A stretch of DNA of 64,000 nucleotides from an uncultured Gemmatimonadaceae bacterium (GCA_963829055.1 CAWHHI010000011.1:288001-352000), one strand, 5' to 3'. Shown: positions 1,166 to 63,235, numbered from the stretch's first letter. Numbers and translations are program-made. The notes: generated from the letters alone by a model not told the origin.

Positions 1166-2115
1166 GACGCGCGTGATCCGGCCCGCACGACCTCGGCGCG
1201 GCTCCTCCGCTCCGGCACGGCACGATCCGGTCGCGATCGCGGCGGAGTCCGAGATTGCTCGACGCGGGATTCATGCGCGCACCTCGCCTGCTCCAGCCGG
1301 CGCGCCCGGCGCGCGCGATGAGCCATGCCGCGCCTAACGCGACGGCCGTGGCCGCGACGGCGCCCGCTCATGCCGGCGGCGATGGCCATGCCGACCGGGA
1401 GCAGCAGGTTCGCGCCGTAGTAGCCGATCAGCCAGGGCGCGGACAGCTCGCCGATCCACGAGTCCACGCGCAGTGCTCGCGAAGACGACCATCAGCGCCA
1501 CACCGGTGACGAACCAGCCGAACAGATTCAGCAGCGGCATGCCGTAGTACGGCCCGTTCGTGCCCCAGACCCAGTACTTCGTGGCGAGGCTCATCGCCGG
1601 ATCGAGCGCGAGGTCCCAGCTCAGCAGAATGAACGAGCCGAGCACCACTCGGCGCGACGACGCTCGCCGCGCCGCGGAAAGCGCCAGAACGCGATCGCGT
1701 ACGACGGCAGCGCCATCATGAACCAGGACGCCGGAATGAGCACCGGCACGTGCTCGAGCCACTTCCATCCCAGCCCGTCGGTGTAGTGGTACGGTCCGAA
1801 CGGGAGGCCAGCCATCGTGCCGGCCAGCTCGGCGCTCAGTGAAACGAGATAGACGACGGCGAACGCGCCCAGCCAGCGCCAGCCGACGTGGCGCGTGAGA
1901 AACAAGGCCAACGCCGCAAACGCGATGATGATCTGCGCGCGCGGCGCGATCACCATCATGCGGGCGTACGTCGCCGGCGGCACGTTCGCCTTCGCGAGCA
2001 GCTCCGGATGCATGGCGAAGGTGGCGAAGCCCGCCAGCGCAGCCACCGAAATGAGGTACGCGACGGCCAGGGCGATGACATCCACTCGCCCACCCGAACG
2101 CGTGATGATCACCAC
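1162..2115 (-). CDS. cruF: CruF-type carotenoid 1,2-hydratase / carotenoid biosynthesis membrane protein (frameshifted across 3 ORFs)
   Basis: ELAGTMAGLPFGPYHYTDGLGWK..VPVLIPASWF; WDLALDPAM..YWVW..YYGMPLLNLFGWF; adjacent to crtB. Confidence 0.75.
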
Positions 2116-2208
2116 GGAGACGACTGGCGGACGGTACCGGCAGCTCTCATTGCGGGGCCTTCGGCAAGACTATGCGGCGTGGCCATCGGCCTCAATCGTC
2201 GGGAAACG

Positions 2209-2269
2209 TGTCTAGCTAAACAGCAAATTTACCTAGACACAATATTGACAGAAGTTACTCGTATGTCCA
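2209..2269. promoter_or_regulatory. AT-rich crt promoter with putative CarH/LitR operator
   Basis: TAGACA (2234) and TTGACA (2245) spaced 11 bp; TGTCTA (2209) and TGTCCA (2264) 55 bp apart; lies between carH and the cruF-crtB-idi operon. Confidence 0.5.
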
Positions 2270-2368
2270 GCTTCTTAGAGCAATGAACTGGCCAACGGAC
2301 GTCCTTCAGTTCCCGATTTTCCGACCGACCGCGCCACCAGGCCCGCTCGCCCCGACCGTCGCGCCTGC

Positions 2369-3314
2369 TCAATCGGCCGCCATTGTCGATCTCGCCTCGC
2401 GCCGGTCGCGAAGCAGCACTCGCATCGTGTCGAGGTCGCGCACGACGCGGAGGTCGATGTCGGCCAACGCGCGCTCGAGCCGGATCGCCGCCATTCCGCC
2501 GACGAGCAAGAGGACCCCTGGCGGCAGCGTGCTGGCAATCGTTCGGAGATCGCGCACGGTGCTCTCGCTCTCCGAATACACGATGCTCAGTGCGACCGCC
2601 GATGCCCCCACCTGCGACGCCGCGCCACGATATCGACCGCCGGCAGGTTCGGGCCGAGGTACAGGACGTTCCATCCCTCACTGGCCGCTGCGGCAGCCAC
2701 CAACATCGCTCCGAGCTCGTGCAGCTCGCTCGAGGGCGTCGCGACGACAAGCCGCGGCGCATCGCGGCGGCACGTCGTACGCCTCGGCGATCCATCCCAG
2801 CACTCGCCGAACGGTGTCGGATGCCGAGATGCTCGTGCGCCGGCGTGAACGACCCACGATGCCAGCGATCTCCGACGTCTCGGAGAAATCGCGGCACCGC
2901 CTCATCGACGAACCGCTCCGTGCCGGCAGCGAGCGCACCCCGCTTCAACACACCCTCCAGCACCGCGGGATCGAGATGCTCCGTCGCCAGCATCGCATCA
3001 CGCACCGCGATGTCGACGGCCGACAGAGCTCGAGCGCCGCGGGGCCGCGAGTCGCTCTCGAGCAGCGCATCGAGCGCCGCGCGGTCGAGCCGCGCGATCT
3101 CGCTGATGCTGTGACCGGCCGCCGTCGCTCGCTGGAGCATCACCAGCCGCTCCACGTCGGCGTCGGAGTACAGCCGCTGGCCGCCCTCCGACCGTTCCGG
3201 ATGCACTGCGCCGTACCGGCGCTCCCAGGCGCGGAGCACGTCGGCACTGAGCCCAGTCCGCCGAATCACGGCACGAAGCGGGTATCGAGCGAGGTCGTCA
3301 GGTTGGTCGGCCAT
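2369..3314 (-). CDS. carH: CarH/LitR-type MerR HTH plus cobalamin-binding photoreceptor regulator (frameshifted)
   Basis: MerR HTH (RTGLSADVLRAWERRYG..RSEGGQRLYS), VGDRWHRG..AHEHL, then ELHELGA and LGPNLP B12-binding elements in shifted frames; directly upstream of crt genes. Confidence 0.85.
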
Positions 3315-3377
3315 CACAACGACGGTACCATTCTGTCTATCTATGGTCAACCTTTTTCAGCAAATAGTCTCGACACC

Positions 3378-3923
3378 ATGCCAGAGACCATGACGAAGCC
3401 AGACGTGACATTCGACCGCGTAGACGGCACGACCTGGACGCTACGGGCGAGCCAGACACTTCCCCGTTCTCGTGACATCGTATTCCCGTTCTTTGCGGAT
3501 GCGGCGAACCTCGAGCGCATCACCCCGGCCGAGATGGGGTTCGAAATCCTCACGCCCACCCCGATCGACATGAGGGCCGGCAGGCTCATTGACTATCACA
3601 TCAGGCTCTACGGCCTGCGCCTTCGCTGGCGCACCCTGATTTCGGTGTGGAAACCGCCGTTCGAATTCATCGACGTGCAGGTCCATGGACCGTACGCCGA
3701 ATGGGTCCATCGCCATCGGTTTACACCGACCGCGAATGGCGGAACGCTGGTCGACGATGAAGTCCGTTTTCGCCTGCCGCTCGGACGACTCGGCACCATT
3801 GCCGTGCCGCTCGTGAAACGCCAACTGCGGCGCATCTTCACCTACCGGTACGAAGCCATCGCCAGCGCCTTCGTGACGCCCCAACCCCGCTCAACTCCCT
3901 CCCGACATCGGTCCGCGGGTTGA
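3378..3923 (+). CDS. SRPBCC/START-superfamily protein
   Basis: VFPFFADAANLERITP..F.D.QV.GPY..W.H.H.F..GGTLV.DEV.FRLP.G; divergent from carH. Confidence 0.8.
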   Translation: MPETMTKPDVTFDRVDGTTWTLRASQTLPRSRDIVFPFFADAANLERITPAEMGFEILTPTPIDMRAGRLIDYHIRLYGLRLRWRTLISVWKPPFEFIDVQVHGPYAEWVHRHRFTPTANGGTLVDDEVRFRLPLGRLGTIAVPLVKRQLRRIFTYRYEAIASAFVTPQPRSTPSRHRSAG

Positions 3924-4702: not shown

Positions 4703-6165
4703 TCACACGTGCCCCACGTGCGCGATCACGCGCTGTGCGGCCATGCGTGCGCCGGTGATGCAGTCGCCGACGGAGACGCCGGTCCGCCAGCCACCGGCGA
4801 GCGTCAATCCAACGTCATTCGTCTCCATCGCGCGCGCGGCACACACCACAGCCTCGTGTCCCGCGTCGTACTGCGGGATCGCCCGCGGCCACGCCGTCAG
4901 GGTGACAAATGACGGGGCTGCGGTTGCTCCGAGCAGCGCGCGAAGGTCACTCAACAGCGGCGGCATCAGCGCATCGAGCGGCAACGCGGTGCGCCATCGC
5001 GCCTGCGTCCCGCCGACGAAACAGGTCAGGAGCGCCATACCGTCAGGACATCGGCCCGCGAACATCAATGACGTGAATAATCCGCCAAGCAACGTGCGCC
5101 GGCTGTGATCGGCGACGAGAAACCCGAAGCCGTCCAGGGGATGGGCAATGCCATCGCGCCTAACGCCAATCGATACCGTGGCGATTGGGGCGTGGTCCAC
5201 AGCGGAAATGACGGAGATCGACTCGCGACAGGATGCCGGCAGTTGCAGATCGCGCAGGCGATGCGCGGGCACGGCAATGACCGCATGAGCGACGGTCACG
5301 CTCTGGCTCCGGCCTGCCCGCTCTACATCGACGCGCCACGAGCCTGTCGCCGTGGGTGCCAGTCGGCGCACAGTCACACCGCACGTCAGGCGATCGCCGA
5401 GGGCCGACGCGAGCGCGTTTGGCAACGCCCCCATCCCGGCCCGGAACGATAGCGACGTGCCTAACGACTATCCGTCCCGCTCGCCGCATCCGACGTCGAG
5501 CACGCGCAGCTCGTACCGCTCCGATCAGCACGGACCCGTGCCTGCGCTCCAGGTCCACGAGCCTGGGCATGGCGTGGCGCGCGGAGAGCGCGTCGGCATC
5601 GCCGGCATACACTCCGCTCACGAATGGCGCGACGAGACCATCCAGAACCTCGCTCCCCAGGCGACGGCGGACGAACGCGCCCAGACTCTCGTCACCGGCG
5701 GCGTCATCCGCGCGGCGGCCGACAAACGGCTCTCGAAGCAGCCGCCACTTGGCGCGCGTCGATAGCAACGGCGTGCGCGCCAGCTCGAGTGGAGAGCTGG
5801 GAACAGGCAACAGTGCATCGCCACGCGCGACATAGCGTCGCCGCGCTCCCGGCGCTGGGGTGACGACCTGCGCCTCGAGCCCGAGGTGCTCGATGAGATC
5901 GCAGACGTCGTCCGTCGCCGCGAGAGAATTCGGTCCGCGTTCTGCCGTCCATGCTCCCAATCGGTCGGTGCCGATGACACCTCCTGGTCGGTCGGCCGCC
6001 TCGAATACCACGACGTCGATCCCACGACGCATCAGCTCCCACGCAACAGTGAGTCCGGTGATGCCACCGCCGATGACGGCCACGCGATGCGCCGCCGCGC
6101 GCGACCTGGCGCTCGGCGGAGTCGCGGACAGGCGGACGGGGCGCACGTTCGCGCTCAGTGAGCAT
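4703..6165 (-). CDS. hemY: protoporphyrinogen oxidase, HemY-type flavoprotein (frameshift near 5450)
   Basis: VAVIGGGITGL, ERGPNS, PFVSGVYAGD, LDGFGFLV, WPRAIPQY, GVSVGDCI. Confidence 0.9.
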
Positions 6166-7172
6166 CGGACACCCAGTCACGCGGAACGAGCATATCGGCG
6201 AGCGCGGACCCGAGAGGCTCCGAACGTGAGGCATCGTGCTCGCCACCACCTAACGCGCCCTGCGCCGGAGACGGCCAGGATGCGAGGGGCGGAAGGCTCA
6301 TCAACACGCTCTCGATGCGCGCCCCGGTCTGCACGCCGAACAACGTGCCGCGGTCGTGGAGCAGGTTGAACTCGACGTACCGTCCGCGCCGCGCCAGTTG
6401 CAGCGCCCGCTCGGCGTCACCGTGCTGGCGGTGGCGGTGCCGCTCGACCAACGGCGCGTACGTAGACTCCGGCGACAGCGCGACATCGCGAAGAAACGCG
6501 AACCGCTCGGCGAGTCCCGCATTCGCGTCGTCATCGTGCAGTCGTAAGTGGTCGAAGAAGATGCCGCCTACGCCGCCGCGCTTCCCCGCCCCGGTGGCGA
6601 TTCACGAAGTACTCATCGCACCAGGGTTTGAAGCGCGGGTACAGTGACGGATGGTGGCTGTCGCACACGACGCGCAGCTCGCGATGGAAGTGGCGTGCGT
6701 CGTCCGGTCGCGGGTACATCGGGGTGAGGTCGGTTCCGCCACCGAACCACGAGTCGCATATGACGCCATCGCCATCAGTGACCTCGAAGTACCGCACGTT
6801 CAGGTGGAGCGTTGGGATGTGCGGGTTGTGCGGGTGCAGCACCATGCTGACGCCGGCGGCGAAGAAGAACGCCTGATCGTTCGGCGCGCCGCGCCCGCCG
6901 AGGCGAGCGGCCGCTTCAGGAGGAAGGACACCTTCGACCACGGATCGATTGATTCCCGCTTTCTCGAACACATTGCCGTCGATGAGCAGCCTGCTCACTC
7001 CGCCGCCACCGCCGGGTCGGTCCCATTGCTCCTCGTGGAACTCGCGCCCGTCGATACCGCTGAACAGAGATGTCAGCGCGTCGTGCACCGAGGTCGCCAG
7101 CTCAACGGCGAGATCCCGACCGGTGGCGGCTCGCGCATCGATGAAGTCGTTAGGTGCCAGCATCGCGGTCAC
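6155..7172 (-). CDS. hemF: oxygen-dependent coproporphyrinogen III oxidase (frameshifted)
   Basis: GGGGVSR..FEKAGIN, HPHNPHIPTLHLNVRYF, WFGGGTDLTP, RRGRYVEFNLLHDRGTLFG. Confidence 0.93.
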
Positions 7173-8289: not shown

Positions 8290-9583
8290 TCAATCTCCGG
8301 ATGACACGGTGGCACGAGCCGCTTCGGTCGCGAGCGGAGCGAAGAGCCGCGTGAGGGCTGTCGTTAGGTCGTCGACACGCTCGCCGCGCACGATCGCGCC
8401 GCGGAGCTCCGTCATCGGGCGCGCGAGCAATTTGGCGACGACGCGGTCGGCCGCCCGCCGTGCGACGCGCTCGTCGCCCGCGGCGTGCTCGAACTCGCGC
8501 TGGCACAGCGCGCTCAGGGCCTGACGCAGTGGCTGAATCGCTTCACGCGCCGACGCAGCGGCGAGCCAGTCGCGGAATCGTTGCAGCTCCACTTCGACGA
8601 TGCCTTCCGCCGCCGGCACGGCGTGTTGACGCTCGCGCTCGTCGGCGACGAGTACGGGGCGCAGCGCGTCGAGATCGACGACCACGGCACCGGCAACGTT
8701 CGAAACCGCAGGTTCAGCGTTACGAGGAAGCGAAAGGTCAATCACGAGCAGTGGGCACGTCGCTGTTCCACAATTGCGGCGCGCCACTTCGAGGCGATCG
8801 GCTCGCAGAAGTGGTGTAGGCGAGCCGGTGGCGAAGATCGCGATGTCGGCCATGGCGACCTCCACGTGCACGTTCTCGAGCGGGGCGACGCGGCCGCCGA
8901 CCTGTGCCGCGAGGTCGGCGGCACGTGCTTCCGTTCGATTCATGATGATCATGTCCCGCGCGCCGAGCTTGGACACCTGACGCGCAACGCGGGCCGCGGT
9001 CTTGCCGCTGCCCACGACCACGACACGCGCCGGCCCCAGCGATCCGAACCGCCGCGCGGCGAGGCTCGCCGCCTCAGCACCGATGGAGTGCCTGCCGCTC
9101 GACAGCGACGTCTCGGTCCTGACGCGTTTCCCGACGTGCAGCGCGGTTTCGAAAAGCCGGCGTAACGCGGACCCGGGCTCGCCGCACGCCACGGATCGCT
9201 GGTACGCCTCTCTGAGTTGCCCGAGTAGTTGTCCGTCGCCGAGGACCTGCGATTCAATACCGGCGGCGACGCGCAGCAGAATGGCGCGCGGCGTCGTCTC
9301 CGTCGCGACAGCGCGCAACCGCGAGCAGTTGGCGGGCACCTGTGGCCGTGCCCATCCACTGCCGCGCGAGCCGCGTGAATGCAAACTCGCGCCGTGTCGC
9401 CGGAAAGCCGCCGCACCACGCATAGAGCTCGGTGCGGTTGCACGTGGACAGCGCGACGGTTTCATGATCGGGGGCGGTCGCGCCACGCGCGTAAATGGAC
9501 GCGAGACGCTCGGCGCCGATATGGAACGCCTCGCGCGTGGCGACGCCGACGTGCCAGGAGTCGATCGCGAGCGATATCAGCAT
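8290..9583 (-). CDS. hemA: glutamyl-tRNA reductase (frameshifted near 9300-9450)
   Basis: LSTCNRTELY, RVAAGIESQVLGDGQLLGQ, GKRVRTET, VIDLSLPRN. Confidence 0.9.
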
Positions 9584-9599: not shown

Positions 9600-10787
9600 T
9601 CATGCGGGGGCGAGGCCGGTGAGGTGCGCGAGATTCTTGAAGAAGATCCGGGCGTGCGCCAGCGGCCGCGCCCGGACCAGTCGTTTCGTCATGTAGGCGT
9701 CGAACGTTAGGCGCTGCACGTCCGTGTCGCGGCAGATCGCGACGAAGCGCTCGCGGCGGGCATCGCTCGAGTACCAGAAGCGCTGCATGACACCGAGCAC
9801 GCGAAACACCTGGCCGTGCGCCCGCATGAAGCGCTTCCTCGCCGTGGCGAGCGCGCGGACGTCCCCCGTCTCGATCGCGAGCGCAACCGCGTCGGCGGCG
9901 AGCCGGCCGCCGGTCATGGCGTAGAAGATCCCTTCACCTGATGCGGGAGCGACCACGCCCGCCGCATCGCCGGCGAGCACGACATCGCGGCCGTTGTCCC
10001 ATCGTCGGAGCGGCGCCAGCGGAATCGGTGCACCTTCGCGGCGAAGCGTCGGCGCGTCCGCGAGCCCGATCGAAGCGCGGAGATCGCGGACCGCGGCCTT
10101 GAGGCCGAAGCCTTGATGGAGACTTCCGGTCCCGACGCTCGCCGTCGGCCCGTGCGGGAAAACCCAGGCGTAGAAATCCGGTGACAGCGCGCCCTGGTAA
10201 TAGACGTCGCACCGGGCCGCCGCGTAGCTGTCGGAGTCGGCGTTAGGTGTGGCAATCACCTCGTGGTATGCGAACACATGGCGCATGTCGGCGGCACCCG
10301 GGATGGATTGCCGCGCCACGGCAGATAGTGCGCCGTCTGCGCCGACCACGACGCGAGCGCGCACGGCGGCTGTTGATCCTGACCGCGATCGCCCTTGCGC
10401 GTAGCGCACGATCGCCACGCCGTCCGTATCGTGGTCGACGTGTTGAAACGTGCCGACGATGCGCGTCGCGCCGGCCGTCGCCGCACGCGCGCGAAGCCAC
10501 TCGTCGAACGCGTCGCGATCGACCATGCCGACAAATCCGTCGCCGACCGGAATATCGACCTGACGCCCCCGCGGCGAAATCATTCGCGCCGACGCGATGC
10601 GCGCAACGAGCAGTGACTCCGGGATCGCGAAGTCGCTGATCAGCTGCGGCGGCACGGCGCCGCCGCACGGCTTGGTGCGACCCGCGCGATCGAGCAGGGC
10701 CACGGAGCAGCCACGCTTCGCCAGCTCGTGGGCGGTTGTCGCACCGGCGGGACCGCCGCCGACCACGACCGCATCGTACGTCTTCAC
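9600..10787 (-). CDS. bchP: geranylgeranyl-bacteriochlorophyll reductase
   Basis: VVGGGPAG, KPCGGA, SPDFYAWVFPHG, GDAAGVVAPASGEGI. Confidence 0.96.
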   Translation of the reverse strand: MKTYDAVVVGGGPAGATTAHELAKRGCSVALLDRAGRTKPCGGAVPPQLISDFAIPESLLVARIASARMISPRGRQVDIPVGDGFVGMVDRDAFDEWLRARAATAGATRIVGTFQHVDHDTDGVAIVRYAQGRSRSGSTAAVRARVVVGADGALSAVARQSIPGAADMRHVFAYHEVIATPNADSDSYAAARCDVYYQGALSPDFYAWVFPHGPTASVGTGSLHQGFGLKAAVRDLRASIGLADAPTLRREGAPIPLAPLRRWDNGRDVVLAGDAAGVVAPASGEGIFYAMTGGRLAADAVALAIETGDVRALATARKRFMRAHGQVFRVLGVMQRFWYSSDARRERFVAICRDTDVQRLTFDAYMTKRLVRARPLAHARIFFKNLAHLTGLAPA

Positions 10788-10824
10788 CGCACCTCCCGCG
10801 CCGCGAGTGGCGCTGTCGTTAGGC

Positions 10825-11727
10825 TCACCGGATGCCGGCCGCGGCGACCATCATTCCGAGCACGTAGAGCGGCACGCCGACCCCGCTGTACCAGAGCGCC
10901 TTGGCGACAGGCGCAGCGTGGAACCGCCACATGAGCGGCAGTTGGGCGGCGATGAGAAGACTCACGGCCGCCGTGGCCCAGACGGCGCCCCAGGATGCGA
11001 GTAGACCAGCCACCACGAGTTGAGCACCGAGCATGATGCCGCAGGCGATGCGCGCCGCGTTGACCGCTCCGTGCTGCGCGGGAAGCGAGCGGACACCCAT
11101 GCGCCGGTCGCCGCGGATGGACTTGAAGTCGTTCAGCGTCATGATGCCATGCGCGCCGAGGCTATACAGGGCAGCGAGGACGACGATCCTGACGCCGGGT
11201 GCAGACCCGCCGAGCGCGACCGACGCTCCGGTGATCCAGGCCAGCCCCTCGTAGGAAACGCCGACGGCGAGGTTGCCCCACCAGCCGTTGCCCTTGAGGC
11301 GAAGCGGCGGGGCGCTGTACGCCCATGCCAGCACGAGGGCGACGAAGGTCGCGATCATGCCCCACGTGCCGAGGAACGACGCGACGACGAGCGATGCCGC
11401 CGACCAGCCTAACGCGAGATGCAGACCGAGTCGTCCCGGGATGCGGCCGGACGGAATCGGGCGACCGGGTTCGTTGATGGCGTCGACTTCGCGGTCGAAC
11501 CAGTCGTTGACGATCTGGCTCGCGGCGCAGACGCAGGGACCGGCGACGATGACGCCGAGCGCCAGCCGCCACGACGCGACGGAACCTGCGTTCGCGGACA
11601 CGACGCCGCAGGCGAACGCCCACATGGGCGGGAACCATGTGATTGGCTTTGCGAGCTCGACGACCGTCCGGATGGAGGGCCCGGGTCGTGCGAAATGTTC
11701 GGATCGATGTACAGTGAAAACTGTCAC
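10825..11727 (-). CDS. bchG: bacteriochlorophyll synthase
   Basis: KPITWFPPMWA, NDWFDREVDAINEPGRPIPSGR, GAHGIMTLNDFKS. Confidence 0.96.
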   Translation of the reverse strand: MTVFTVHRSEHFARPGPSIRTVVELAKPITWFPPMWAFACGVVSANAGSVASWRLALGVIVAGPCVCAASQIVNDWFDREVDAINEPGRPIPSGRIPGRLGLHLALGWSAASLVVASFLGTWGMIATFVALVLAWAYSAPPLRLKGNGWWGNLAVGVSYEGLAWITGASVALGGSAPGVRIVVLAALYSLGAHGIMTLNDFKSIRGDRRMGVRSLPAQHGAVNAARIACGIMLGAQLVVAGLLASWGAVWATAAVSLLIAAQLPLMWRFHAAPVAKALWYSGVGVPLYVLGMMVAAAGIR

Positions 11728-14262: not shown

Positions 14263-16032
<1,770 letters not shown>

Positions 16033-17551: not shown

Positions 17552-22251
<4,700 letters not shown>

Positions 22252-22252: not shown

Positions 22253-22998
22253 TGCATCCGTCGACGACCCACGACGGGCGCTACGTCGAACGACGGGAGC
22301 AGCTCAGCGAGTATTTCGGTGCCACCGCCGCGGCGAGTTGGGCCGCGCTCACGTCCGACGCACCGACCAACTTCGTGCGGCGAGCCGTGCGCGCTGGACG
22401 CGAGGAGATGCGCCAGCACATGGTGGCATGGCTGCCCGCGCGGCTCGATGGACTCCGCGTGCTCGACGCGGGGTGCGGCACGGGCGGTCTCTCGATCGAG
22501 GTCGCTCGCCGCGGAGCGACCGTCCTGGGGGTCGACGTGGCGGACGCGATGATCGCAATCGCACGAGACCGGACGCCGGCCGCGGTCGCGGATCGGGTGG
22601 CGTTCGTGACGGGCGACATGCTTGACGGCGCATTCGGCACGTTCGACCACGTCGTGGCCATGGACTCACTCATCCACTATGCGGGTGACGATATGGTCGG
22701 AGCCATCCGAGCGCTGGCCGAGCGGACGCGCGTCTCGCTGTGCTTTACGGTTGCGCCCCGCACACCAGCGCTGGTCGCGCGACACGCGTTGGGTCGCCTG
22801 TTCCCACGGCGGAACCGGTCGCCCGAGATCAACCCGGTACCGACTGAGCGTGTGAAACACGAAATCGGCTCGGCGTTAGGTAACACGTTTCGCGTCAGGC
22901 GGGAGGCGCGCGTCGCAACGGGCTTCTACGTCTCGCAGGGCATCGAGCTCGTGCGCGGGACCCCTGAGCAGCTTCATGACCGGAGGATCGGCGTATGA
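22252..22998 (+). CDS. bchM: Mg-protoporphyrin IX methyltransferase
   Basis: WAALTSDAP..VRAGR, VLDAGCGTG, VAMDSLIHY, GFYVSQ. Confidence 0.95.
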
Positions 22999-30236: not shown

Positions 30237-31757
<1,521 letters not shown>

Positions 31758-37106: not shown

Positions 37107-37226
37107 GGGCCGGTTCTCCTCCCCACAGATGAAGACTCGCGACGACGAGTCGCGACGGTCCGTTCGCTCGGGGTGAGGGCCGGCGGCCCCATGAGCGGCG
37201 CCACCGTTCCCCCTCCCGACGTTGCC

Positions 37227-37652: not shown

Positions 37653-37751
37653 AGCTCCTCCTGTTAGGTTGCGGGTGCTACACGTGCCGCGTGCCGAGCG
37701 CGCGGCGGGTTCGGCGGCGCACCCCGACCGCGCCGCACACTCGAGAGATCA

Positions 37752-50991: not shown

Positions 50992-51009
50992 CGCGGCGTT
51001 AGGCCTGGG

Positions 51010-53421: not shown

Positions 53422-54494
53422 TCAGCCGCGCTCGTGACCACATGCCGCGCTGGGCCGGCCGAGTAGGCGAGCACCGCCCTCCGACAACAGGGATTCGGCC
53501 AGTGACCTGCCTAACGCCTCAGGGTTATCGACGGGGCCGGTGACCGACGCACGCACCGACGCGCCATCGATCGACCCAATGAATCCCTGCAACCGGATGT
53601 TGGGGCACACGCCCGCATGCACCTCGGCGTACGCCGCAACCGGCACGCTGCATCCGCCCCCGACCAGCGCGAGGAACGCGCGTTCCGCGATCACGGCCGT
53701 TTTCGTCGCCGCGTCGTTCAGCGACGCGATCATGAGCCAGGTGTCGGGATCCGCCGCGCGCGTTTCGAGCGCCAGCGCCCCCTGCCCGACTGACGGCAGC
53801 ATCTCTTCCGGCGAGAACACGTACGTCGCGCGATGCGACAGACCGAGTCGTGAGAGCCCCGCGGCGGCGAGCACGATCGCGTCGAACTCGCCGTCATCCA
53901 GCTTTCGCAGGCGCGTGTCTACGTTCCCGCGCATGCTCTCGAGCACGAGATCGGGGCGCAGCGCGCGGAGCTGTGCGATGCGCCGTGGGCTGCTCGTGCC
54001 GACGCGCGCGCCACGTGGTAACTCGTCGAGGCCGCCAAAGCGCGAGATCAGCACGTCATGCGGGTCGGCCCGGGGCGGGAAGACCGGCAATGCCATATCC
54101 GGCGGCAGGTCTGACGGCAGGTCCTTGGCGCTGTGCACCGCGAGGTCGATCCGCCGGTCGCGCAACGCCTGCTCGATCTCGGCCACGAACAACCCTTTCC
54201 CATCGATGGCCGCGAGAGGGCGATCGATAATGAGGTCGCCTTTGGTCGTGATCCGTTCCCGGGCGACCTGCACCCCCGGATTCGCGGCGATGATCGCCGC
54301 TTCGATGAGCGTCGTCTGCGCGAGCGCGAGCAGACTTCCTCGTGTGCCGATCGTCAGAGTGGCGGGCGTCGCGACGGGTCGCGGGGCTCCCGCGTCGGCG
54401 GTGCGGTTGGCGGCGGTAAGCGCAGTCCCCAGACGACCCTCCGGATAGCGAGCTCGGAGCTCTGGCCCTGTCGAGGATAGCCGTTTGGCGCCAT
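53422..54494 (-). CDS. hemC: porphobilinogen deaminase (start uncertain)
   Basis: IGTRGSLLALAQ, GKGLF..EIE, AVHSAKDLP, GTSSPRR, RGNVDTRL, GGCSVP. Confidence 0.94.
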
Positions 54495-54591: not shown

Positions 54592-55071
54592 ATGCCAACA
54601 CACTCCGCGGGCGATCGGCCGCGCAACGCTCGACACTCCGCGCGGAGCACCGACTCGCGACTGGATCTGCCGACCGGCAGACGGGTGCTCGCCATCGCGA
54701 GCCGCGTCCTCCGACTTCGCTGTCCGCACTGCGGCGGCGGTCACGTCCTCACGCGGCGCGTCGCCGTCCGAGACCGCTGCCTCGGGTGCGGCCTCCAATT
54801 TCGTCGCAGCGACGACAACTACTTCTCGGGCGCGATGTTCTTCGGCCTGTTGATCGGCGAGACCATCTTCGCGCTCAGCCTGCTCGGGACAATCGTCGTA
54901 TCGTGGCCCGACGTTCCGTGGGACGCCATCACGTACATCGCGCCGGTTGGCATGATCGTCGTGATGCTGCTGCTGATTCCCGTGTCGAAGGTCGTGTGGC
55001 TCGGCGTCGATCTGCTGGTGCGACCCGCGACGCCGGCAGAGTTGAGCTCCCCCGGCATCGCGGATCGTTAG
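54592..55071 (+). CDS. DUF983-like Zn-ribbon membrane protein
   Basis: LRCPHCGGG..RCLGCG followed by two TM helices and W.G.DL. Confidence 0.75.
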   Translation: MPTHSAGDRPRNARHSARSTDSRLDLPTGRRVLAIASRVLRLRCPHCGGGHVLTRRVAVRDRCLGCGLQFRRSDDNYFSGAMFFGLLIGETIFALSLLGTIVVSWPDVPWDAITYIAPVGMIVVMLLLIPVSKVVWLGVDLLVRPATPAELSSPGIADR

Positions 55072-55084
55072 GCCGAATCGCGGA

Positions 55085-57274
55085 TCACGGCGCCGTTCCG
55101 GGGTTGTACCGCTTCACCGTCTGCGCCTCGATGTCGGCGGGTGTGAACGCGACGCGCTTCATCTCGCCGCGCGCGAACATCTCCGCCTGATCGCTGTGGA
55201 ACGGCGAGTCCTCGCGCGAGCTTTCGCCGTAGGCGAGCACAGAATACGCGCGCGGAATCTCCTTCCCGAACTCGATCGCCAGAACCCATCCGTCGCCGCC
55301 GATGGCGGAGCGCTTCCCATCCGGATTCGTGGCGAAGTTGAGCACGCGGAAGCAGCCTAACGCGCCGCTGCATCCGCCCACCGGCACGTCGACCTTGCCC
55401 ATTCGCACGCGATGCACGTCGCCCCATGCGATGCCCGGGTCGCCGTACTGCTTCGTCGTCTCGGCAACCGCCTGAGCGAACGCGCGCGCCGCGCGCGCTG
55501 GATCCTTGAGTCCCCGCGGCGTCATGAACGGCTTCGCCGGTGTCCAGGGCTCAGCGTACAGGGAGTCGACAATTCCGCCCTGCGTGTAGAGACGCCACCA
55601 GTTCTCGAAGAGGACGGCGCCCTTACTCGTCGGGCCCGCGGCATTGTCCCACTTCGCCAGCATGTCGGCTGCGCTCGTCACCGATGCGTCTGGATTCGAT
55701 GCTCGCACCGCCGCGATGAGATCGGGCTTCACGCGATCGGCCAACAGCATCCGGTACGAGTGCTTGAGCGCGATCACGTCCTCGAGGCTGAGCTTCTGCT
55801 GCGGATCGATCAGCGTCAGGGCCATCTGCGTGCGCAGGCCGAGCCTGGGCTCCGGGAAGTTCGCCGGATACTTCGACCGGTCGAGCACCTGACGCAGATT
55901 CGTGTGATATGGCGGATCGTTCGAGTTCTGCACGTACCCGCCCTTGGGATTCAACAGCTGCGGCAGCGAATCGAAATCGACATAACGCGTCCATACGTCC
56001 GACGTCCGGCGCGCGGGAATGGCCGCGGTGTCGCCACCGCTCGGATGCGGCAGCGATGGGATCGACGCGTTCCAGACGTAGTAGATGTTCCCGGCACGAT
56101 CGGCGTAGGTGAAGTTCGAGTTGAAGCGCGAGCGAATCCGCATCGCATCCTTCCACTCCGCGAGCGACTTCGCCCGCATCATGTGCAGGAACTGCTCGCC
56201 GCCGCGGTAGTCCCCTTCGTCCGCGCCGCGGAACACGTAGATCTTGCCGCCGTCGCGCCAGATCACGGGGCCCAACGGTGTGCGCCACGTCTCCCGCGTT
56301 TCCGTCGAGAGCCCGTTGCCGTTCTTGTACGTGACGGTGGTGAGCTCGCGCTGGAGCGGCAACGACGTCCCGTCGAACAGGTAGTGGTCCGCGCGCGCCG
56401 GATCGACGTCGAGCGCGTAGATCTCGTCGAGATCCGGCGCGTTGTTCGTGGTCGACCAGCCGAGGTCCTTGTTGAATCCGCCGACCACGCCGAACGGTCC
56501 GCCGATCCGGAAGTCGCCGTAGAAGTCCATGACGCCGGGAACCGTGATATGGCCTTCGTAGTAGCCGGAGCTCCAGGCGAGGTGCGGATTCCGCAGCAGA
56601 ATGGCGCGGCCGGACTTCGTGCGGCTCGGCGCGAACGCCCACGCGTTCGACCCCTCTTCGATCGGATCGACGCCTTCGTTCGACGGCTCCGGGCTGGCCG
56701 CAGCCGGTCCAGCTCTGCGATTCGTGTTCGTCGCTGGCGCGACGCGAGCGAGGAATCGTCGCGCACTCGCCTGCGACGCCGACGTGACGTCACGCGCCGC
56801 CACGTCGTAGCCGGTGAAGCTCGGCGTGAACCCAGCTGGAAACTCCTGAGGGTGCAGCTCAATGTATCGATTTACCCCAGCCGCGAACCCCTCGTACACG
56901 TCGCGCGTCGGCTGCTCCAGGCGGGCGTAATTCTCCACCGCCAGCGCGTATTCGCGCTGAGCGCCGAAGTCGCCATCCATACTGTCGCGCCCGAACCAGC
57001 GGCCCATCTCGCCGCGCGCGCGCAGCAGCCCCATTGCCACACGTGCGCCGTAGTCCTCGAGCTGCACGTAGCCCAGCGCGTACGCCGCCGCCGCGAGATT
57101 CTCGGCCTTGATGTGGGGCACACCGTGCGTGGTGCGTCGAATCTCGACCTGTCGCGCGTAATCCGGCACCGCCGGTGTGGTCTGCGCGGCTGCACCCACG
57201 GCGGTGGTGAGCAGAAACGCGGCAGTAAAGGCTGAAACGAGCGGTGTGATGATGTGAGATCGCGTAGCGGTCAC
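55085..57274 (-). CDS. penicillin/AHL acylase family Ntn hydrolase, secreted
   Basis: Signal peptide, IRRTTHGVPHI, GSNAWA (catalytic Ser), NPHL.W. Confidence 0.9.
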   Translation of the reverse strand: MTATRSHIITPLVSAFTAAFLLTTAVGAAAQTTPAVPDYARQVEIRRTTHGVPHIKAENLAAAAYALGYVQLEDYGARVAMGLLRARGEMGRWFGRDSMDGDFGAQREYALAVENYARLEQPTRDVYEGFAAGVNRYIELHPQEFPAGFTPSFTGYDVAARDVTSASQASARRFLARVAPATNTNRRAGPAAASPEPSNEGVDPIEEGSNAWAFAPSRTKSGRAILLRNPHLAWSSGYYEGHITVPGVMDFYGDFRIGGPFGVVGGFNKDLGWSTTNNAPDLDEIYALDVDPARADHYLFDGTSLPLQRELTTVTYKNGNGLSTETRETWRTPLGPVIWRDGGKIYVFRGADEGDYRGGEQFLHMMRAKSLAEWKDAMRIRSRFNSNFTYADRAGNIYYVWNASIPSLPHPSGGDTAAIPARRTSDVWTRYVDFDSLPQLLNPKGGYVQNSNDPPYHTNLRQVLDRSKYPANFPEPRLGLRTQMALTLIDPQQKLSLEDVIALKHSYRMLLADRVKPDLIAAVRASNPDASVTSAADMLAKWDNAAGPTSKGAVLFENWWRLYTQGGIVDSLYAEPWTPAKPFMTPRGLKDPARAARAFAQAVAETTKQYGDPGIAWGDVHRVRMGKVDVPVGGCSGALGCFRVLNFATNPDGKRSAIGGDGWVLAIEFGKEIPRAYSVLAYGESSREDSPFHSDQAEMFARGEMKRVAFTPADIEAQTVKRYNPGTAP

Positions 57275-57536: not shown

Positions 57537-60500
57537 ATGAGGACGTGTCAAGTTGTCCGCACACTCGTACAAGCCGCGTTCCTAGGAACGCTCGCGTCCG
57601 GATTCGCGGTCGCGCAAACCCCACAAACGGGCACGATCACCGGCCGCGTCACGGACGCGGCGACTGGTCAGCCAGTGTCTGCCGCTCAGGTAGGCATCGT
57701 CGGTACGAACGCCGGCACGCAGGCCACCAGCGAGGGCGTATACACACTTCGCGGCGTGAACGCGGGGACGGTGCAGATTCGCGTGCTCCGAGTTGGCTAC
57801 GCCGAAGTAAAGCAGACCGTCACGGTCGCGGGTGGTCAAACCGTTACCGCCAACGTGCAGATGCGCGGCGTCGTCGCCACGTTAGCGCCGGTCGTCACGA
57901 CTGCCACCGGTGAACAGCGCCGAGTGGAAGTCGGTAACGCCATCGCGCAGGTGGACGCCGCCAAGCTCGTCGAGACGTCGCCCGTGTCGAACATGGGCGA
58001 TCTGCTCACGGCGCGCGCACCTGGCGTCATGGTCATTGGCGGAACACAGACGGGCGCGGGGACGCGCGTTCGTGTGCGCGGTACGAGCTCGCTGTCGCTC
58101 ACGAACAACCCGATCTACGTCATCGACGGCGTCAGGGTCGAGGGCACAACCGGATCGTCCACACTCGACGTTGGTGGATCGACGCCGTCTCGTGTCGGCG
58201 ATCTCAACCCGGAAGAGATCGAGAACATCGAGATCGTCCGTGGTCCCTCCGCCTCCACGCTGTATGGCACCGACGCCGCGAACGGCGTCATCGTGATCAC
58301 GACCAAGCGCGGCATCGCCGGCAAGACGCAGTGGACGTACTACACTGAACAGTCCGCGATCCAGGACCGGAACAACTATCCCGACCGCCTTCTGGGGCTG
58401 GCGCACCGGCACAACCTCCGCCACGACGTCCAGTCCGTCGAACACCGTCCAGTGCTTCCTGAGCCAGGTCTCCGCTGGCGTCTGCAAGCAGGACAGTGTG
58501 ACGACGTACAACCTCACGGACGACAAGGAGTCGACGCCGTTTGGCATTGGCTACCGGCAGCAGCATGGTCTGCAGCTTCGCGGCGGCACCGATTTCATTC
58601 GGTACTTCGCCCACGGCGAGTACGAGGACGAGGACGGCGTCTCGAAAGTGCCTGACTTCGAGGACCGCTACATGCCAGCGCACGCGCGCTCGCTGTCGCC
58701 GATCCAGCGCAGCCCGAACCATCTGACCAAGATGACGGCGCGGACGAACCTGAACATCACACTCGCGCGTAACGCCGACCTGGCGATCAACGCCGGCTAC
58801 ATCTCGCAGGATCTGCGGCTGAACGAGAGCGACGACTCCGGCACGCTCGGCATCGCGGCCAACACGTACGGCGGCCCCGGGTTCAAGTACAACACGACGG
58901 CCGCGGGCGACACGCTGTACGGATGGCGGCAGTTCACGCCACGCGACATCTACCAGCAGACGTCGAACCAGGGCATCGAGCGCCTCATCACGTCGGCGAA
59001 CGCGAACTGGCGGCCGGCTGAATGGCTGGCGGTGCGCGGGAACATGGGCCTCGACTACATCAACCGCACGGACACGCAGATCTGTCGCTTCCAGAACTGC
59101 CCGGACGTCAGCACGACTCGTCAGGGCTTCAAGATCGACAACCGCAGCAACTTCTTCATCTACACGCTGGACGCGGCCGCGACTGCGACGCGCCGACTCG
59201 GCGCGTCGGTCGAGTCGAAGACCACGGCCGGCATCCAGGCCTACCGCAATTACTTCGATCGCAACGGCGCGAGCGGCACCATCCTCGCTCCGGGTGCGAC
59301 CACGATCTCGGGCGCAGGCACGAAAGCCGCCGACGAATCCACGACCGAGAGCCGCACACTTGGCGGGTATCTCGAGGAGAATCTCGCTCTGCACGACCGC
59401 CTGTTCATCACGGGCGCGATTCGCTCCGACAAGAACAGCGCGTTCGGTGCCGACTTCAAGCGAGTCTACTATCCGAAAGCCGCTGTTTCGTGGGTCGTCT
59501 CGGACGAGTCATTCTTCCCGAAGGCGAACTTCCTCAATCAGCTTCGCCTGCGCACGGCGTACGGTGCCTCGGGCGTACAGCCCGGCACCACGGACGCCGC
59601 ACAGTTCTACACCTCCACGACGGGACGCGGCGAGAGCGGCGATTTCACTGGCGTCGTTTTCAGTTCGGTCGGCAACCGTGAGCTCAAGCCGGAACGGTCC
59701 ACGGAAGCGGAGTTCGGCATCGACGGTACGTTCTGGAACGGTCGCCTCTCGACCGAGCTCACGTACTACGCCAAGTCCTCGAAGGACGCGCTCGTACAGC
59801 GCATCCTCCCGCCATCGCTCGGCACTGGCGCCACGTCACGCTTCGAGAACCTCGGCGAAGTCACGAACAAGGGCATCGAAGCGCTCATCAACGCGCGCAT
59901 CATCCAGAGCAACCAGTTCGGCTGGGACGTCACGCTGAACGGGTCGTCGAACGCGAACAAGCTCGTCACGTTAGGCGGTGTACCCTCCATCGTCACGTCG
60001 TCCACGCTGCAGCAGCGCGAGGGCTACCCGCTCAACGGCTGGTGGTCGCGTAAGCTGCTCGGCTACGAGGACAAGAACGGTGACGGCATCATCACCAACA
60101 CGGGCTGCGCCGCGCTCCAGAAGGACAACACCGCGCAGTGCGAGATTTCTGTCTCGGACACGACGATGTTCCTCGGCTATTCGTCGCCGAGGGCCGAAGC
60201 CGCGATCACCAACGGCTTCGATCTGTTGAACCGCCGCCTCCGCGTGAGCGCGCTGATCGACTACAAGGGCGGTCACAAGAATGTACAACAACACGGAGCG
60301 CATTCGCTGCGCGAGCCGCTTCAACTGCTCGGGACTCATCAGCCCGGATGCGAGTGAGTTCCAGCAGGCCCGCACCGTGATGGTCCGTGAGCACGCGAGC
60401 AGGTCGGTCGGCGGCTTCATCGAGCCCGGCGACTTCGTCCGCTTCCGCGAGCTGTCGGTCTCGTACACCGCACCGGAGTCGTTCGCCTCGCGCTACATCC

Positions 60501-60673: not shown

Positions 60674-62086
60674 ATGGACCTCCGAATGAACACATATACC
60701 ACCTTCGTCTCGGGCTGGACCCGACGCACGAGCGCGTTCATCGCGCTCGCTGCGCTGTCTCTAGTCGGGTGCAAGTCGCCGGACGAATTTCTCTCGGTCA
60801 CCGACCCTGACATCATCAACCCCGCCGACGTGCAGTCCGCCGCTGGCGCGGACGCCGTGCGGCTGGGCGCTCTCGCCCGACTGAATAGCTCGACCAGCGG
60901 ACCGGTGACGTCGACCGGCGGCGAAAGCTTGTTCCTGCTCGGCGGCCTGTTCTCCGACGAGTACAACAACGGCGACTCGTTCATCGCGCGTCAGGAGGTC
61001 GATCAGCGCATCATCACGATCCAGAACAACTTCCTCACCGACGCGAATCGCGCGATGCATCGGGCGCGCCTGGCCGCGCAGCAGGCCATCGGACTCGAGA
61101 AGCAGTACAACCCCACGGCGCCCGCGGCGAACATCGCCGAGATGTACTTCGTTCAGGCGTACATCGAGACGATGATGGCCGAGCACTACTGCAATGGCCT
61201 GATCTTCAGCACGGTCGTCGACGGCGTCGAGAAGTACGGTCAGCCGATCACGACGCAGGAGGCGTTCGCAATCGCGCTCGCACACGCCGATTCTGGTCTC
61301 GCGCTCATCACCGGCACGACGGCGCAGGACGTCAAGATCAAAGGCGTGCTGCAGGTGACGAAGGGTCGTATCCTGATGAACCTCAACCGCTATGCGGACG
61401 CTGCCACAGCTGTCGCGGGGGTTGCGACGTCGCTGCAGTATCAGGAGCTCCACACGGCGACCACGAGCCAGCAGAATCAGATGTGGTCGTTCAACGTGAG
61501 CAACCGACGCTACAGCGTGAGCACGGGCGAGGGCACGAACGGTCTCAACTTCGCCACGGCTAACGATCCGCGACTGCCGGTTTGCCTCGGCGGCGATGCG
61601 GCATGCCGGGCGATCGGCGTGACGCTCGCGACTCGCGACGACCTAACGAGTCCGATCTACGTCCAGCGGCTGTGGACGACGAACGCGAGTCCGGTGACGA
61701 TCGTGAGTGGTATCGAGGCACGCATGATCGAAGCGGAAGCACAGCTCAAGGCGGGACAGCCCGCGGCGGCGCTCGCGACGCTCAACGCGGCTCGCGCGAC
61801 GGTGACGGGACTCACCCCACTCACCGATCCCGGAACCGACGCCGCTCGCGTCGACCAGATCTTCCGTGAGCGGGCGTTCTGGATGTTCTCCACCGGTCAC
61901 CGCACCGGTGACCTGCGGCGCCTCATCCGCCAGTACGGCCGTGCCGCGAACTCGGTCTTCCCGACGGGTGGCTGGCACAAGGGCGGGAACTACGGTGGCG
62001 ACGTCACGCTTCCGGTCCCGCAGGCGGAGCAGAACAACCCGAACCTGCCGTCGTCGGCAACGACCTGTATCGATCGGGTCGCCTAA
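60674..62086 (+). CDS. SusD/RagB lipoprotein
   Basis: Lipobox LSLVGC, EARMIEAEA..LN..R, ERAFW.F..GHR.GDLRR, E.NNPN; follows SusC. Confidence 0.88.
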   Translation: MDLRMNTYTTFVSGWTRRTSAFIALAALSLVGCKSPDEFLSVTDPDIINPADVQSAAGADAVRLGALARLNSSTSGPVTSTGGESLFLLGGLFSDEYNNGDSFIARQEVDQRIITIQNNFLTDANRAMHRARLAAQQAIGLEKQYNPTAPAANIAEMYFVQAYIETMMAEHYCNGLIFSTVVDGVEKYGQPITTQEAFAIALAHADSGLALITGTTAQDVKIKGVLQVTKGRILMNLNRYADAATAVAGVATSLQYQELHTATTSQQNQMWSFNVSNRRYSVSTGEGTNGLNFATANDPRLPVCLGGDAACRAIGVTLATRDDLTSPIYVQRLWTTNASPVTIVSGIEARMIEAEAQLKAGQPAAALATLNAARATVTGLTPLTDPGTDAARVDQIFRERAFWMFSTGHRTGDLRRLIRQYGRAANSVFPTGGWHKGGNYGGDVTLPVPQAEQNNPNLPSSATTCIDRVA

Positions 62087-62107
62087 CGTTCTGGTCGGTA
62101 AGGCTGC

Positions 62108-62150
62108 ATGCAAAACCGCCGGCGACACGAAGTCGCCGGCGGTTTTGCAT
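62108..62150. terminator. bidirectional intrinsic terminator
   Basis: 19-bp perfect stem ATGCAAAACCGCCGGCGAC-ACGAA-GTCGCCGGCGGTTTTGCAT between convergent genes. Confidence 0.85.
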
Positions 62151-62154
62151 TGGT

Positions 62155-62308
62155 GTCATCCCGAGCGCCAGCGTAATGTCATCCCGAGCGCCAGCGAGGG
62201 ATCTTCTGTGAAGTCACTCGTAGCCAGACCGGCTACGATGACGTCAGCGAGTCCCGAACTGCGGCGCTGCGCTCCTGAGCGCAGGCTCTGACGCTGCTCG
62301 GGATGACA
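62155..62308. repeat. REP/MITE-like element (TGTCATCCCGAGCGCCAGCG x2 ... GCTCGGGATGACA)
   Basis: Tandem direct copies plus a terminal inverted copy; intergenic. Confidence 0.7.
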
Positions 62309-62349
62309 CGCGAGCTGCCCTTCTCTGTTCCCGGTTCCCCGTTCCCGCC

Positions 62350-63235
62350 TTACGGTGCCTCGTTCGGCTCTCCCGCCTGCGCAATGAGCGCTGGTAGCGC
62401 GCTCGACTCGACGCCGTGCTTCACCGACTCGAGCGATAGCGTGAGCGTGAACTTCGAGAACTTCGCCTTCACCTGCACCGGATACCTGCTCGCGTCGTCC
62501 GTGAACCACACCTGGGCCTGACCGTCGTCCGAGAAGATGCCGCTCGTGCGAATCGTCGGTCGGATAACCGTCGTCGCGAACGTGCCCGCACCGACCGTGA
62601 CCGTATCACGACGAAGACCCGTCAGTACCACCGGATTCTTGTCAGGCCGGAAGTAGCGGTTGTCGCTGCGCGTCTCACCGACGTTCACGCCCGCGGTGCG
62701 AACGGCGTAGATGAACGAGCCATCGTCCAACGGGTTCGTCACGCTCGCGTGCACCGAGTCGCCCTGCTTCTGGTACTCGGCGCGCTCGGGGTAGATCTCG
62801 TACGACGTCGTCGCTGTGATACCGGCCCTCCGAGATCTGCTGGCGATGACGCAGCGACGCGAGCGTCTCGACGTCGATCCAGCTCTCGTATCGGTCGTGC
62901 ACGCGGAACAACGGCACGCCGCCGTCCACGCTGAACACGACGTGATACGCCGGACGCCCGCGGACGACCTCGATGCCGTCCACGCGCATGCGTGCGGTGC
63001 CCGCATGAATTCCGCTGAACGTCGCGCGATACGTGAGCTCTTCACCCACGGCGTACGGAACGGACGCAACAGAAATGGTCTGGCCTGCAGCCTGAACGAC
63101 ACGCAGCTGCGGCTGCTGTGCGCCAGCGGCCGCTGATGCCGAGGCCACAACGCCTAACGCCATCACGACGAGGCCGGCGCTCGCGCGCGCCGCGTGTCCC
63201 AGTCGCTGATTGATTCGCTCGTAGATCCTTCGCAT
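62350..63235 (-). CDS. DUF3108-like secreted beta-rich protein (frameshift near 62815)
   Basis: PYAVGEELTY, RVHDRYESWID, PLDDGSFIY.VR, VTVGAGTF, IFSD.G...VWFTDD..R.PV. Confidence 0.75.

Follow-up and report, generated by a model that had tools for sequence, protein, structure and literature searches.

The window and its sites

The DNA analysed here, referred to below as the window, is a 64-kb stretch (64,000 nucleotides) from an uncultured Gemmatimonadaceae bacterium (GCA_963829055.1, CAWHHI010000011.1:288001-352000). Our subject is a short non-palindromic word that recurs across it, CGTTAGG on one strand and CCTAACG on the other. The photosynthesis and cbb genes of the window are bchP, bchG, bchN, bchB, bchH, bchL, bchY, bchZ, bchI, acsF, ppsR, pufC, pufL, prk, cbbX and rbcL; between 9600 and 48000 the photosynthesis genes form a cluster in which prk, cbbX and rbcL are inserted between the puh and puf regions. 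The heptamer occurs 52 times as an exact match, 24 times on the plus and 28 times on the minus strand, and the shorter GTTAGG/CCTAAC occurs 57 times. The whole set spans 1333..63159 on both strands and consists of the 52 exact sites and five first-base variants, all of them single sites:

1333..1339, minus, CGTTAGG site, exact match
5159..5165, minus, CGTTAGG site, exact match
5460..5466, minus, CGTTAGG site, exact match
6249..6255, minus, CGTTAGG site, exact match
7148..7154, plus, CGTTAGG site, exact match
8362..8368, plus, CGTTAGG site, exact match
9705..9711, plus, CGTTAGG site in bchP, exact match
10241..10247, plus, CGTTAGG site in bchP, exact match
10817..10823, plus, CGTTAGG site, exact match
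11408..11414, minus, CGTTAGG site in bchG, exact match
12427..12433, minus, CGTTAGG site in ppsR, exact match
15263..15269, plus, CGTTAGG site in bchN, exact match
16369..16375, minus, CGTTAGG site in bchB, exact match
17686..17692, minus, CGTTAGG site in bchH, exact match
18907..18913, minus, CGTTAGG site in bchH, exact match
19802..19808, plus, TGTTAGG, first-base variant (acts like the exact word genome-wide)
20867..20873, plus, CGTTAGG site in bchH, exact match
21819..21825, plus, TGTTAGG, first-base variant
22874..22880, plus, CGTTAGG site, exact match
23194..23200, plus, CGTTAGG site, exact match
24942..24948, plus, CGTTAGG site, exact match
25340..25346, plus, CGTTAGG site, exact match
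27756..27762, plus, CGTTAGG site, exact match
27770..27776, plus, GGTTAGG at the end of prk, first-base variant
29693..29699, plus, CGTTAGG site in cbbX, exact match
30219..30225, plus, CGTTAGG site just past rbcL, exact match
31461..31467, plus, CGTTAGG site in rbcL, exact match
31756..31762, plus, CGTTAGG site, exact match
32332..32338, plus, CGTTAGG site, exact match
33486..33492, minus, CGTTAGG site, exact match
33957..33963, minus, CGTTAGG site in pufC, exact match
34218..34224, minus, CGTTAGG site in pufC, exact match
35157..35163, plus, TGTTAGG, first-base variant
35789..35795, minus, CGTTAGG site, exact match
37226..37232, minus, CGTTAGG site, exact match
37662..37668, plus, TGTTAGG, first-base variant
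37797..37803, minus, CGTTAGG site, exact match
38472..38478, minus, CGTTAGG site, exact match
38893..38899, minus, CGTTAGG site in bchZ, exact match
39364..39370, minus, CGTTAGG site in bchZ, exact match
40460..40466, minus, CGTTAGG site in bchY, exact match
41601..41607, plus, CGTTAGG site in bchY, exact match
43108..43114, minus, CGTTAGG site, exact match
45666..45672, plus, CGTTAGG site in bchI, exact match
46037..46043, minus, CGTTAGG site, exact match
46892..46898, minus, CGTTAGG site, exact match
49632..49638, plus, CGTTAGG site in a bacteriophytochrome-like gene, exact match
50997..51003, plus, CGTTAGG site, exact match
51818..51824, minus, CGTTAGG site, exact match
53322..53328, plus, CGTTAGG site, exact match
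53510..53516, minus, CGTTAGG site, exact match
55066..55072, plus, CGTTAGG site, exact match
55356..55362, minus, CGTTAGG site, exact match
59969..59975, plus, CGTTAGG site, exact match
61642..61648, minus, CGTTAGG site, exact match
62082..62088, minus, CGTTAGG site, exact match
63153..63159, minus, CGTTAGG site, exact match

By our own gene calls, 17 of the 52 exact sites are read as TTA-GG, nine as CCT-AAC, six as CTA-ACG and five as GTT-AGG; four take in a TAG stop, two a TAA stop, and the remaining nine lie outside called genes. An earlier note on this DNA, made from the sequence alone, had given about 52 full and about 57 shorter sites, split about evenly between strands and lying both in genes and between them. 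Both counts prove exact, and the strand split and the nine sites outside genes agree with it, as do the TTA-GG and CCT-AAC sites with its remark that the word uses rare codons. Its chance expectation of about seven heptamers was too high: 100 dinucleotide shuffles of the window give a mean of 3.0 and a largest count of 12.

Selection acts on the word genome-wide

The source genome of the window (G000; 7.78 Mb in 20 contigs, 86% complete) holds 6,391 copies of CGTTAGG/CCTAACG (0.82/kb, one per 1.2 kb; 3,237 on the plus and 3,154 on the minus strand), against Markov expectations of 249 (order 2) and 720 (order 3). The preferred form, CGTTAGGC, is the top octamer of the genome, with 5,004 copies for 102 expected (49x, order 2). 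Information around GTTAGG is concentrated at -1 (C in 90%) and +6 (C in 79%), and two of the 21 one-base variants are clearly enriched, TGTTAGG (6.5x) and CGTTATG (3.9x).

Codon usage does not account for these numbers. Genes were called with our own hexamer model (6,756 calls covering 72% of bases, an under-call owing to frameshifts in the assembly). The 5,805 called genes of at least 300 nt contain 3,886 sites, a thirteen-fold excess over the 282-320 found in five within-gene synonymous shuffles; three codon resamplings of the same genes give 242-246. The word occurs in each of the four open frames (TTA-GG 1,511, CCT-AAC 1,130, CTA-ACG 746, GTT-AGG 499), and 238 of 730 TAA and 192 of 1,507 TAG stops lie inside it, so that it falls about equally on coding and template strands. 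Of 2,602 TTA codons, 1,817 precede GG, and 1,130 of 1,829 Pro-Asn-[ADEGV] slots are written as the word. Those encodable tripeptides also outnumber their reverse (1,829 versus 1,123), while for other Pro-Asn-x the counts are 1,359 versus 1,723 in reverse. Uptake sequences are described as enriching the tripeptides that they can encode (PMC2817400).

Sites are also conserved. In an alignment with a congener (152.6 kb aligned from 242 kb chosen blind, 79.7% identical, sites counted from both genomes), 124 of 222 sites (56%) are retained, compared with 27% of same-composition words and 14% of other TTA words. Distantly related word-rich genomes place the word at the same Leu-Gly and Leu-Thr slots of rpoC, with one slot used in 10 of 28; in 33 word-poor genomes rpoC has no site. 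Contigs from four studies cover window 29-35 kb, and none of the 40 listed among their 109 differences falls inside a site; the public runs holding this part come from soil, rhizosphere and sediment. The earlier note had proposed a host-wide signal, to be checked by k-mer enrichment against Markov and codon-shuffled nulls and by comparison of orthologues. Each of these checks, and the spacing described below, bears it out: selection acts on the DNA word itself, throughout the genome.

Word density in the photosynthesis and cbb genes of the window equals that of the genome, which suggests that the cluster is native to its host, a member of the Gemmatimonadaceae with both phototrophy and RuBisCO. 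This agrees with the earlier view of these genes as native, and contrasts with three blocks of G000 (C6:11000-55000, C6:592000-623330 and C11:1-44000) that hold no word where about 100 would be expected. The same blocks deviate in tetranucleotide use and duplicate housekeeping genes, aroC and def among them; they probably represent foreign DNA that was joined to the assembly. An HsdM-like fragment lies at the margin of one foreign-looking block. Among G000 windows at large, only the 5% most atypical are lower in the word (6.1 versus about 8.5 per 10 kb).

Sites avoid one another and have no polarity

The pair correlation of sites in G000 is 0.27-0.36 below 100 bp and 0.45-0.54 at 100-200 bp, reaching about 1 from 300-500 bp; at short range the values for three control words are mostly 1.0-2.6. 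In every one of the four frames, the occupied share of usable slots climbs as the next site lies farther away, from 0.03 to 0.40 for Leu-Gly and from 0.21 to about 0.75 for Pro-Asn. The two enriched variants are likewise repelled from exact sites (5.8% of TGTTAGG and 7.7% of CGTTATG lie within 100 bp, versus 12-17% of controls) and are therefore counted as the same signal. Given this avoidance, which extends to about 300 bp, a site's benefit seems to saturate over a few hundred bases, one per fragment being enough.

We observe no replichore skew of the word along seven large G000 contigs, where GGGNAGGG flips with GC skew, nor in 1.2 Mb of the Chthoniobacterales genome G579. This upholds the earlier argument from polarity against Chi and the FtsK-orienting polar sequences (KOPS), and rules out identity with either. 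No notable site clusters, no helical or sub-kilobase (<1 kb) periodicity and no preferred position within genes were found in G000. On contigs C1 and C2 of G581, the first listed sites lie mostly on one strand over long stretches, unlike those of G579.

The word is patchy within the family and recurs in a second phylum

All six congeners of G000 carry 3,400-6,700 copies. Among 300 genomes of the family, 97 have at least 50 CGTTAGGC per Mb and 30 at least 500, while 198 have fewer than 20 (median 4.8); without the unpublished G013, G336, G371, G517, G533 and G557 the count is 97 of 294. Positive genera number 29 of 71. Outside the family, a class-wide sample of 271 genomes read by eye, whose rows include the unpublished G055, G058, G063 and G165, has none above about 70 heptamers per Mb, but G036 and G040, two genomes of a sister family, reach 210-260. 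The survey of Gemmatimonadota called for by the earlier note thus finds the word high but patchy, and the artefact that it allowed for, a signal missing from independent assemblies, is contradicted by the 97 that carry it.

In an RpoC tree of 67 rows with a weak backbone, word-rich genomes are interleaved with word-poor ones, so the trait has been gained or lost many times. Mixed neighbourhoods with support of at least 0.93 are, rich before poor, G010/G324, G144/G337, G341+G362/G334, G269/G549 and G036+G040/G026. Sister genomes can differ from about 1,000 to fewer than 10 copies per Mb.

Among the 80 loci with flanks from a paired-word scan of 4 of 64 parts of GTDB, the dense ones belong to two groups alone, Gemmatimonadota and Chthoniobacterales/Verrucomicrobiae. 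Five genomes of the latter group hold 2,136-5,186 octamers each, and a hand count finds at least 50 CGTTAGGC per Mb in 19 of 200 other Chthoniobacterales genomes, whose rows include the unpublished G737 and G751, neither counted positive. The Chthoniobacterales dialect is TCGTTAGGC, with T at -2 in 79-86%; CGTTATG is not enriched there.

The word also fills plasmids and temperate phages. Among 155 viral loci with paired-word patterns, five high-GC contigs have solo words distributed over both strands, at a density of 0.6-1.2/kb; three of these have clear virion genes, and two near-complete ones have integrases. No named phage matched a G341 stretch and no plasmid matched a window protein. Six IMG/VR loci (L464, L475, L485, L494, L517 and L531) show same-strand CGTTAGG runs, mostly with the inverse core, and are integron cassette arrays classed as viral. 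Six more viral loci (L436, L438, L445, L450, L457 and L459; GC 46-53%) have 0.4-0.8 words/kb on both strands, which may be chance at that GC.

The letters of the word are those of the integron crossover

The integron core consensus is GTTRRRY, and the inverse core RYYYAAC. GTTAGGC/T fits the core, and the word is identical in its letters to CG|TTAGGC across the attC/attI crossover. The same attC ends occur in arrays of G027, G341, G000 and Chthoniobacterales. In G027, which is word-poor, the heptamer forms runs on a single strand with a spacing of about 600 bp; these are attC-like hairpins ending CG|TTAGGC, and one run adjoins an intI match. The variants TGTTAGG and CGTTATG are found at attC/attI ends too, and an attI-like site in G186 reads GCCTAA-6-TTATGT.

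G000 itself has about ten true attC hairpins and an IntI-like gene on C20. So few hairpins explain less than 1% of its sites, and inverse-core/core pairs at 40-150 bp show no excess in this genome: the sites are solo and not in hairpins. The region C20:155000-209000 (L154-L156) is integron-like, with several attC hairpins in both orientations. At C20:208007-208985 lies the IntI-like gene, on a long branch and with the usual GKG lysine not seen; a second intI fragment is at C4:2862.

In word-rich Chthoniobacterales, nine lineage-type attC right ends and seven attI-like sites all read TCTCG|TTAG, matching the T at -2 of the genome-wide word; one further end is of another type. Word-poor relatives have T at -2 in three of four attC ends, so the attC form is independent of the word, and all three of their attI-like sites differ. 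The numbers behind this dialect match are small. GTTAGA is frequent at attC ends and depleted in G000 as a whole (77 copies versus 6,391). The word as an arm of dif was rejected, the dif-like site of the family (TAA-6 bp-TTATGTAAACT; G000 C16:560810, minus strand, about 20 kb from xerD; L140-L144; six family genomes) being a different sequence. The integron identity, the repulsion between sites and the second phylum go beyond what the earlier note had described.

Candidate reader genes

The competence genes found in G000 are ComEC, DprA, a secretin, PilM/N/O, pilins and a ComEA-like piece. The co-occurrence check suggested by the earlier note, covering methyltransferase, competence and DNA-binding genes, was run, and the genes tested do not track the word cleanly. 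ComEC and ComEA-like genes, as a switch, are rejected, as they occur in word-rich and word-poor genomes alike. The same holds for IntI, which is above cut-off in 44 of 75 genomes of both kinds, was not found in the near-complete word-rich G378, G347 and G269, and shows neither a rich-only clade nor a conserved neighbour. The only tyrosine recombinases found in G000 are XerC, XerD and IntI-type.

A minor-pilin group (L148:10390-10806; G000 C11:105411), syntenic with a TetR/efflux operon, is confined to the genus of G000 and part of one word-rich clade. Its model (predicted local distance difference test, pLDDT, 85.6) has no fold match at E<=0.001. We regard this solo pilin, the one minor pilin profiled, as a lineage marker missing from most rich genera and an unlikely reader.

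An AddAB/RecB-type nuclease (PF12705, E<=1e-11) occurs in 5 of 44 word-rich versus 16 of 30 word-poor Gemmatimonadales (Fisher p 1.5e-4, without correction for kinship or completeness), in 5 of 33 versus 11 of 30 in a second panel, and without trend in Chthoniobacterales (5 of 10 versus 6 of 10). The family has AddAB patchily, and G000 carries an AddAB-like helicase-nuclease locus at C15:10392-16010, in pieces and in an accessory-looking region. Strong in the first panel and weaker in the second, the anti-correlation is a hint that we keep only as a lead. Ku (34 of 38 word-rich, 23 of 35 word-poor) has a habitat-like, unspecific distribution and was rejected as the reader.

Methylases of PF00145 (G000, G348, G426), PF01555 (G000, G348, G341) and PF02384 (G000) gave no match, with G000 at its 86% completeness and the Dam-, Eco57I- and MmeI-type families outside the search; the methylation option of the earlier note finds no support in these three families. 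Comparing the G000 proteome with 1.2 of the 4.0 Mb of G579 gave 450 loci, with no DNA-binding gene of transfer-like identity among the matches listed.

Discussion

We know of genome-wide selected words at such density only from Neisseriaceae, Pasteurellaceae and cyanobacteria. No published report of the present word was found in the literature searched, which covered few subscription papers and no supplements, and the word is apparently undescribed in print. It works most like the DNA uptake sequences (DUS) of Neisseriaceae and the uptake signal sequences (USS) of Pasteurellaceae, and is not HIP1, Chi, KOPS or attC. As with DUS and USS, it is non-palindromic and present about once per kb on both strands, in genes and without strand bias; the tripeptides it can encode are enriched, its conservation is above background, lineages have dialects, and competence genes are present. 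HIP1 (GCGATCGC, cyanobacteria) is also a hyper-abundant octamer in coding DNA under selection. However, CGTTAGGC is not palindromic (its reverse complement is GCCTAACG), has no cognate methylase in the three families searched, and shows short-range repulsion where HIP1 has long-range periodicity. With integron attC/attI sites it shares identical crossover letters, variants at their ends, and true attC hairpins in G000 and relatives. Unlike attC, it occurs as thousands of solo sites without hairpin, L boxes or cassette, with no 57-141 bp imperfect inverted repeat of inverse core and core flanking a cassette; it is stricter, GTTAGA not being used, and is not tied to the presence of intI. Chi and KOPS are likewise short, non-palindromic, over-represented words read on DNA, but the present word has no replichore polarity and its sites repel one another.

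Our leading reading, held tentatively, is that the word serves as a tag, much like an uptake signal, that the competence machinery of type IV pilus and ComEC reads. A sequence-specific receptor on this route would prefer fragments bearing one word; such fragments would enter and recombine more often, driving the word through the genome, and word-making mutations would spread where protein coding permits and no word is already close. We infer that a protein reads the word and does so at uptake, that one site per few-hundred-base fragment is enough, and that the receptor's preference may have been tuned to the tag carried by integron cassettes. An uptake tag would explain the density, the use of both strands, the tripeptide footprint, the saturation and the dialects, and also the letters of the word, because integron cassettes carry them. 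In neisserial uptake one site per fragment is described as sufficient, with a spacing that matches the size of recombined fragments (PMC2397512). Transformation is reported to feed integrons in Vibrio (PMC12614218), which would make cassette-tagged DNA worth preferring.

Several observations weigh against an uptake tag. The word has 8 bases and lacks the inverted terminator pairs, extended flank and core-genome preference of DUS and USS. Only 20 of 3,078 neighbouring opposite-strand pairs lie within 50 bp, no excess over same-strand pairs, and no extended flanking consensus was found in G000. Density is 0.94/kb in DNA that does not align with the congener versus 0.75/kb in DNA that does, and 0.58/kb in genes conserved across phyla versus 0.73/kb in the rest. 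Since terminator pairs and core enrichment fail, we do not file the word as a member of DUS/USS. It differs from them further in lying on plasmids and temperate phages, in having been repeatedly gained or lost, in occurring in two phyla and in its integron-core spelling. Repulsion is weak in G579 (0.67-0.94 below 200 bp), and spacing is noisy in a 160-kb sample of G341. No receptor was found, and no reader among the integron integrase, three methylase families, ComEC, ComEA, Ku, AddAB and one minor pilin; word-poor genomes have ComEC too, and the minor-pilin group, in 12 of 50 word-rich and 0 of 29 word-poor genomes, is absent from most rich genera. Array ends in G341 are mostly TCG|TTAG, whereas across its genome just 21% of words have T at -2; this mismatch and the avoidance of GTTAGA imply a reader stricter than the integrase's tolerance. 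Finally, all four G341 replicons and the phage virion modules carry the word at host density, which an intracellular reader would fit just as well. With no preference for the core genome and a full load on plasmids and prophages, two such alternatives stay alive.

The first of these, unlikely in our judgement but a serious contender, is a tag of self inside the cell, at which a DNA-scanning nuclease, helicase or defence protein would be stopped or switched to repair, as at a non-polar Chi, so that all resident DNA gains from one site every few hundred bases. Host density in plasmids, accessory DNA and temperate phage genes speaks for it, saturating spacing suits a scanning enzyme, and the rarity of AddAB/RecB-type nuclease in rich Gemmatimonadales hints at a different end-processing route. 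However, known Chi sites are polar whereas the word has no replichore skew, and G000 itself has an AddAB-like locus. The AddAB anti-correlation, uncorrected for kinship and completeness, is absent in Chthoniobacterales, and Ku is common in both groups.

The second, which we consider unlikely, is a role in chromosome architecture of the kind proposed for HIP1: an abundant protein, perhaps of the tyrosine-recombinase core-binding fold, would bind about once per kb and so organise the nucleoid or help to segregate it. In form, the word with its variants (YG|TTAKGC) resembles tyrosine-recombinase half-sites, as in the attI-like site of G186 and the dif-like sites of the family, and even spacing with strand independence suits a structural role at the DNA level. 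HIP1, described as conserved and periodic (PMC5861425), offers a parallel. Set against this are the short list of tyrosine recombinases in G000, the absence of periodicity within 1 kb, and an exclusion that fades gradually over 300-500 bp, unlike a footprint. Repeated gain or loss among sister genomes also sits badly with a structural role.

A reading of the solo sites by the integron integrase, as targets of the attG type favoured by its action on incoming or resident DNA, is improbable. The letters are exactly those of attC/attI crossover ends, attC/attI-like ends of rich Chthoniobacterales match the -2 T where attI-like sites of three poor relatives do not, and IntI is reported to insert cassettes at genomic sites (10.1101/2022.09.11.507474). 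Yet genomes with IntI are of both kinds, three rich genomes gave none, the IntI sequences of rich genomes do not form a single clade, and GTTAGA, common at attC ends, is depleted. In the same report the attG consensus is only GWT and insertions in genes are harmful (10.1101/2022.09.11.507474).

We give still less credence to a HIP1-like word marked by a methyltransferase and enriched through repair or methylation-dependent uptake. The word resembles HIP1 in its density, in how it uses coding slots and in its conservation, and HIP1 is described as read by two methylases and as recently linked to DNA uptake (PMC13756078). However, the word is not palindromic, the methylase searches above were negative, and none of the one-base precursors stands out as depleted. 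As sources of the word, mutational bias, a codon effect and an assembly artefact are scarcely credible: the G000 assembly does contain frameshifts and foreign-looking blocks, but artefact and codon effect are ruled out by the independent assemblies, the codon-aware null, conservation beyond controls and the four-study contigs, and neutral bias would not produce repulsion between sites.

As sister genomes differ so sharply, the reader should be findable by whole-genome profiling, an approach that has been difficult with HIP1. The word is also of practical use as a sharp marker for binning and for hosts: it flags foreign blocks in the G000 assembly and picks out the phages of these hosts. A fourth and a fifth group with such a word, in two of the commonest soil lineages, would show sequence-directed DNA handling to be more widespread, and the letters in common with the integron core would tie it to integrons. 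A more speculative extension of the uptake tag, on balance doubtful, is that the Gemmatimonadaceae and a branch of the Chthoniobacterales each evolved a receptor for the cassette crossover tag, harvesting cassettes from the environmental DNA of any species. If so, the thousands of genomic copies would be the footprint of that preference, the uptake signal would mark the mobile gene pool and not kin, and DNA would pass preferentially between two phyla.

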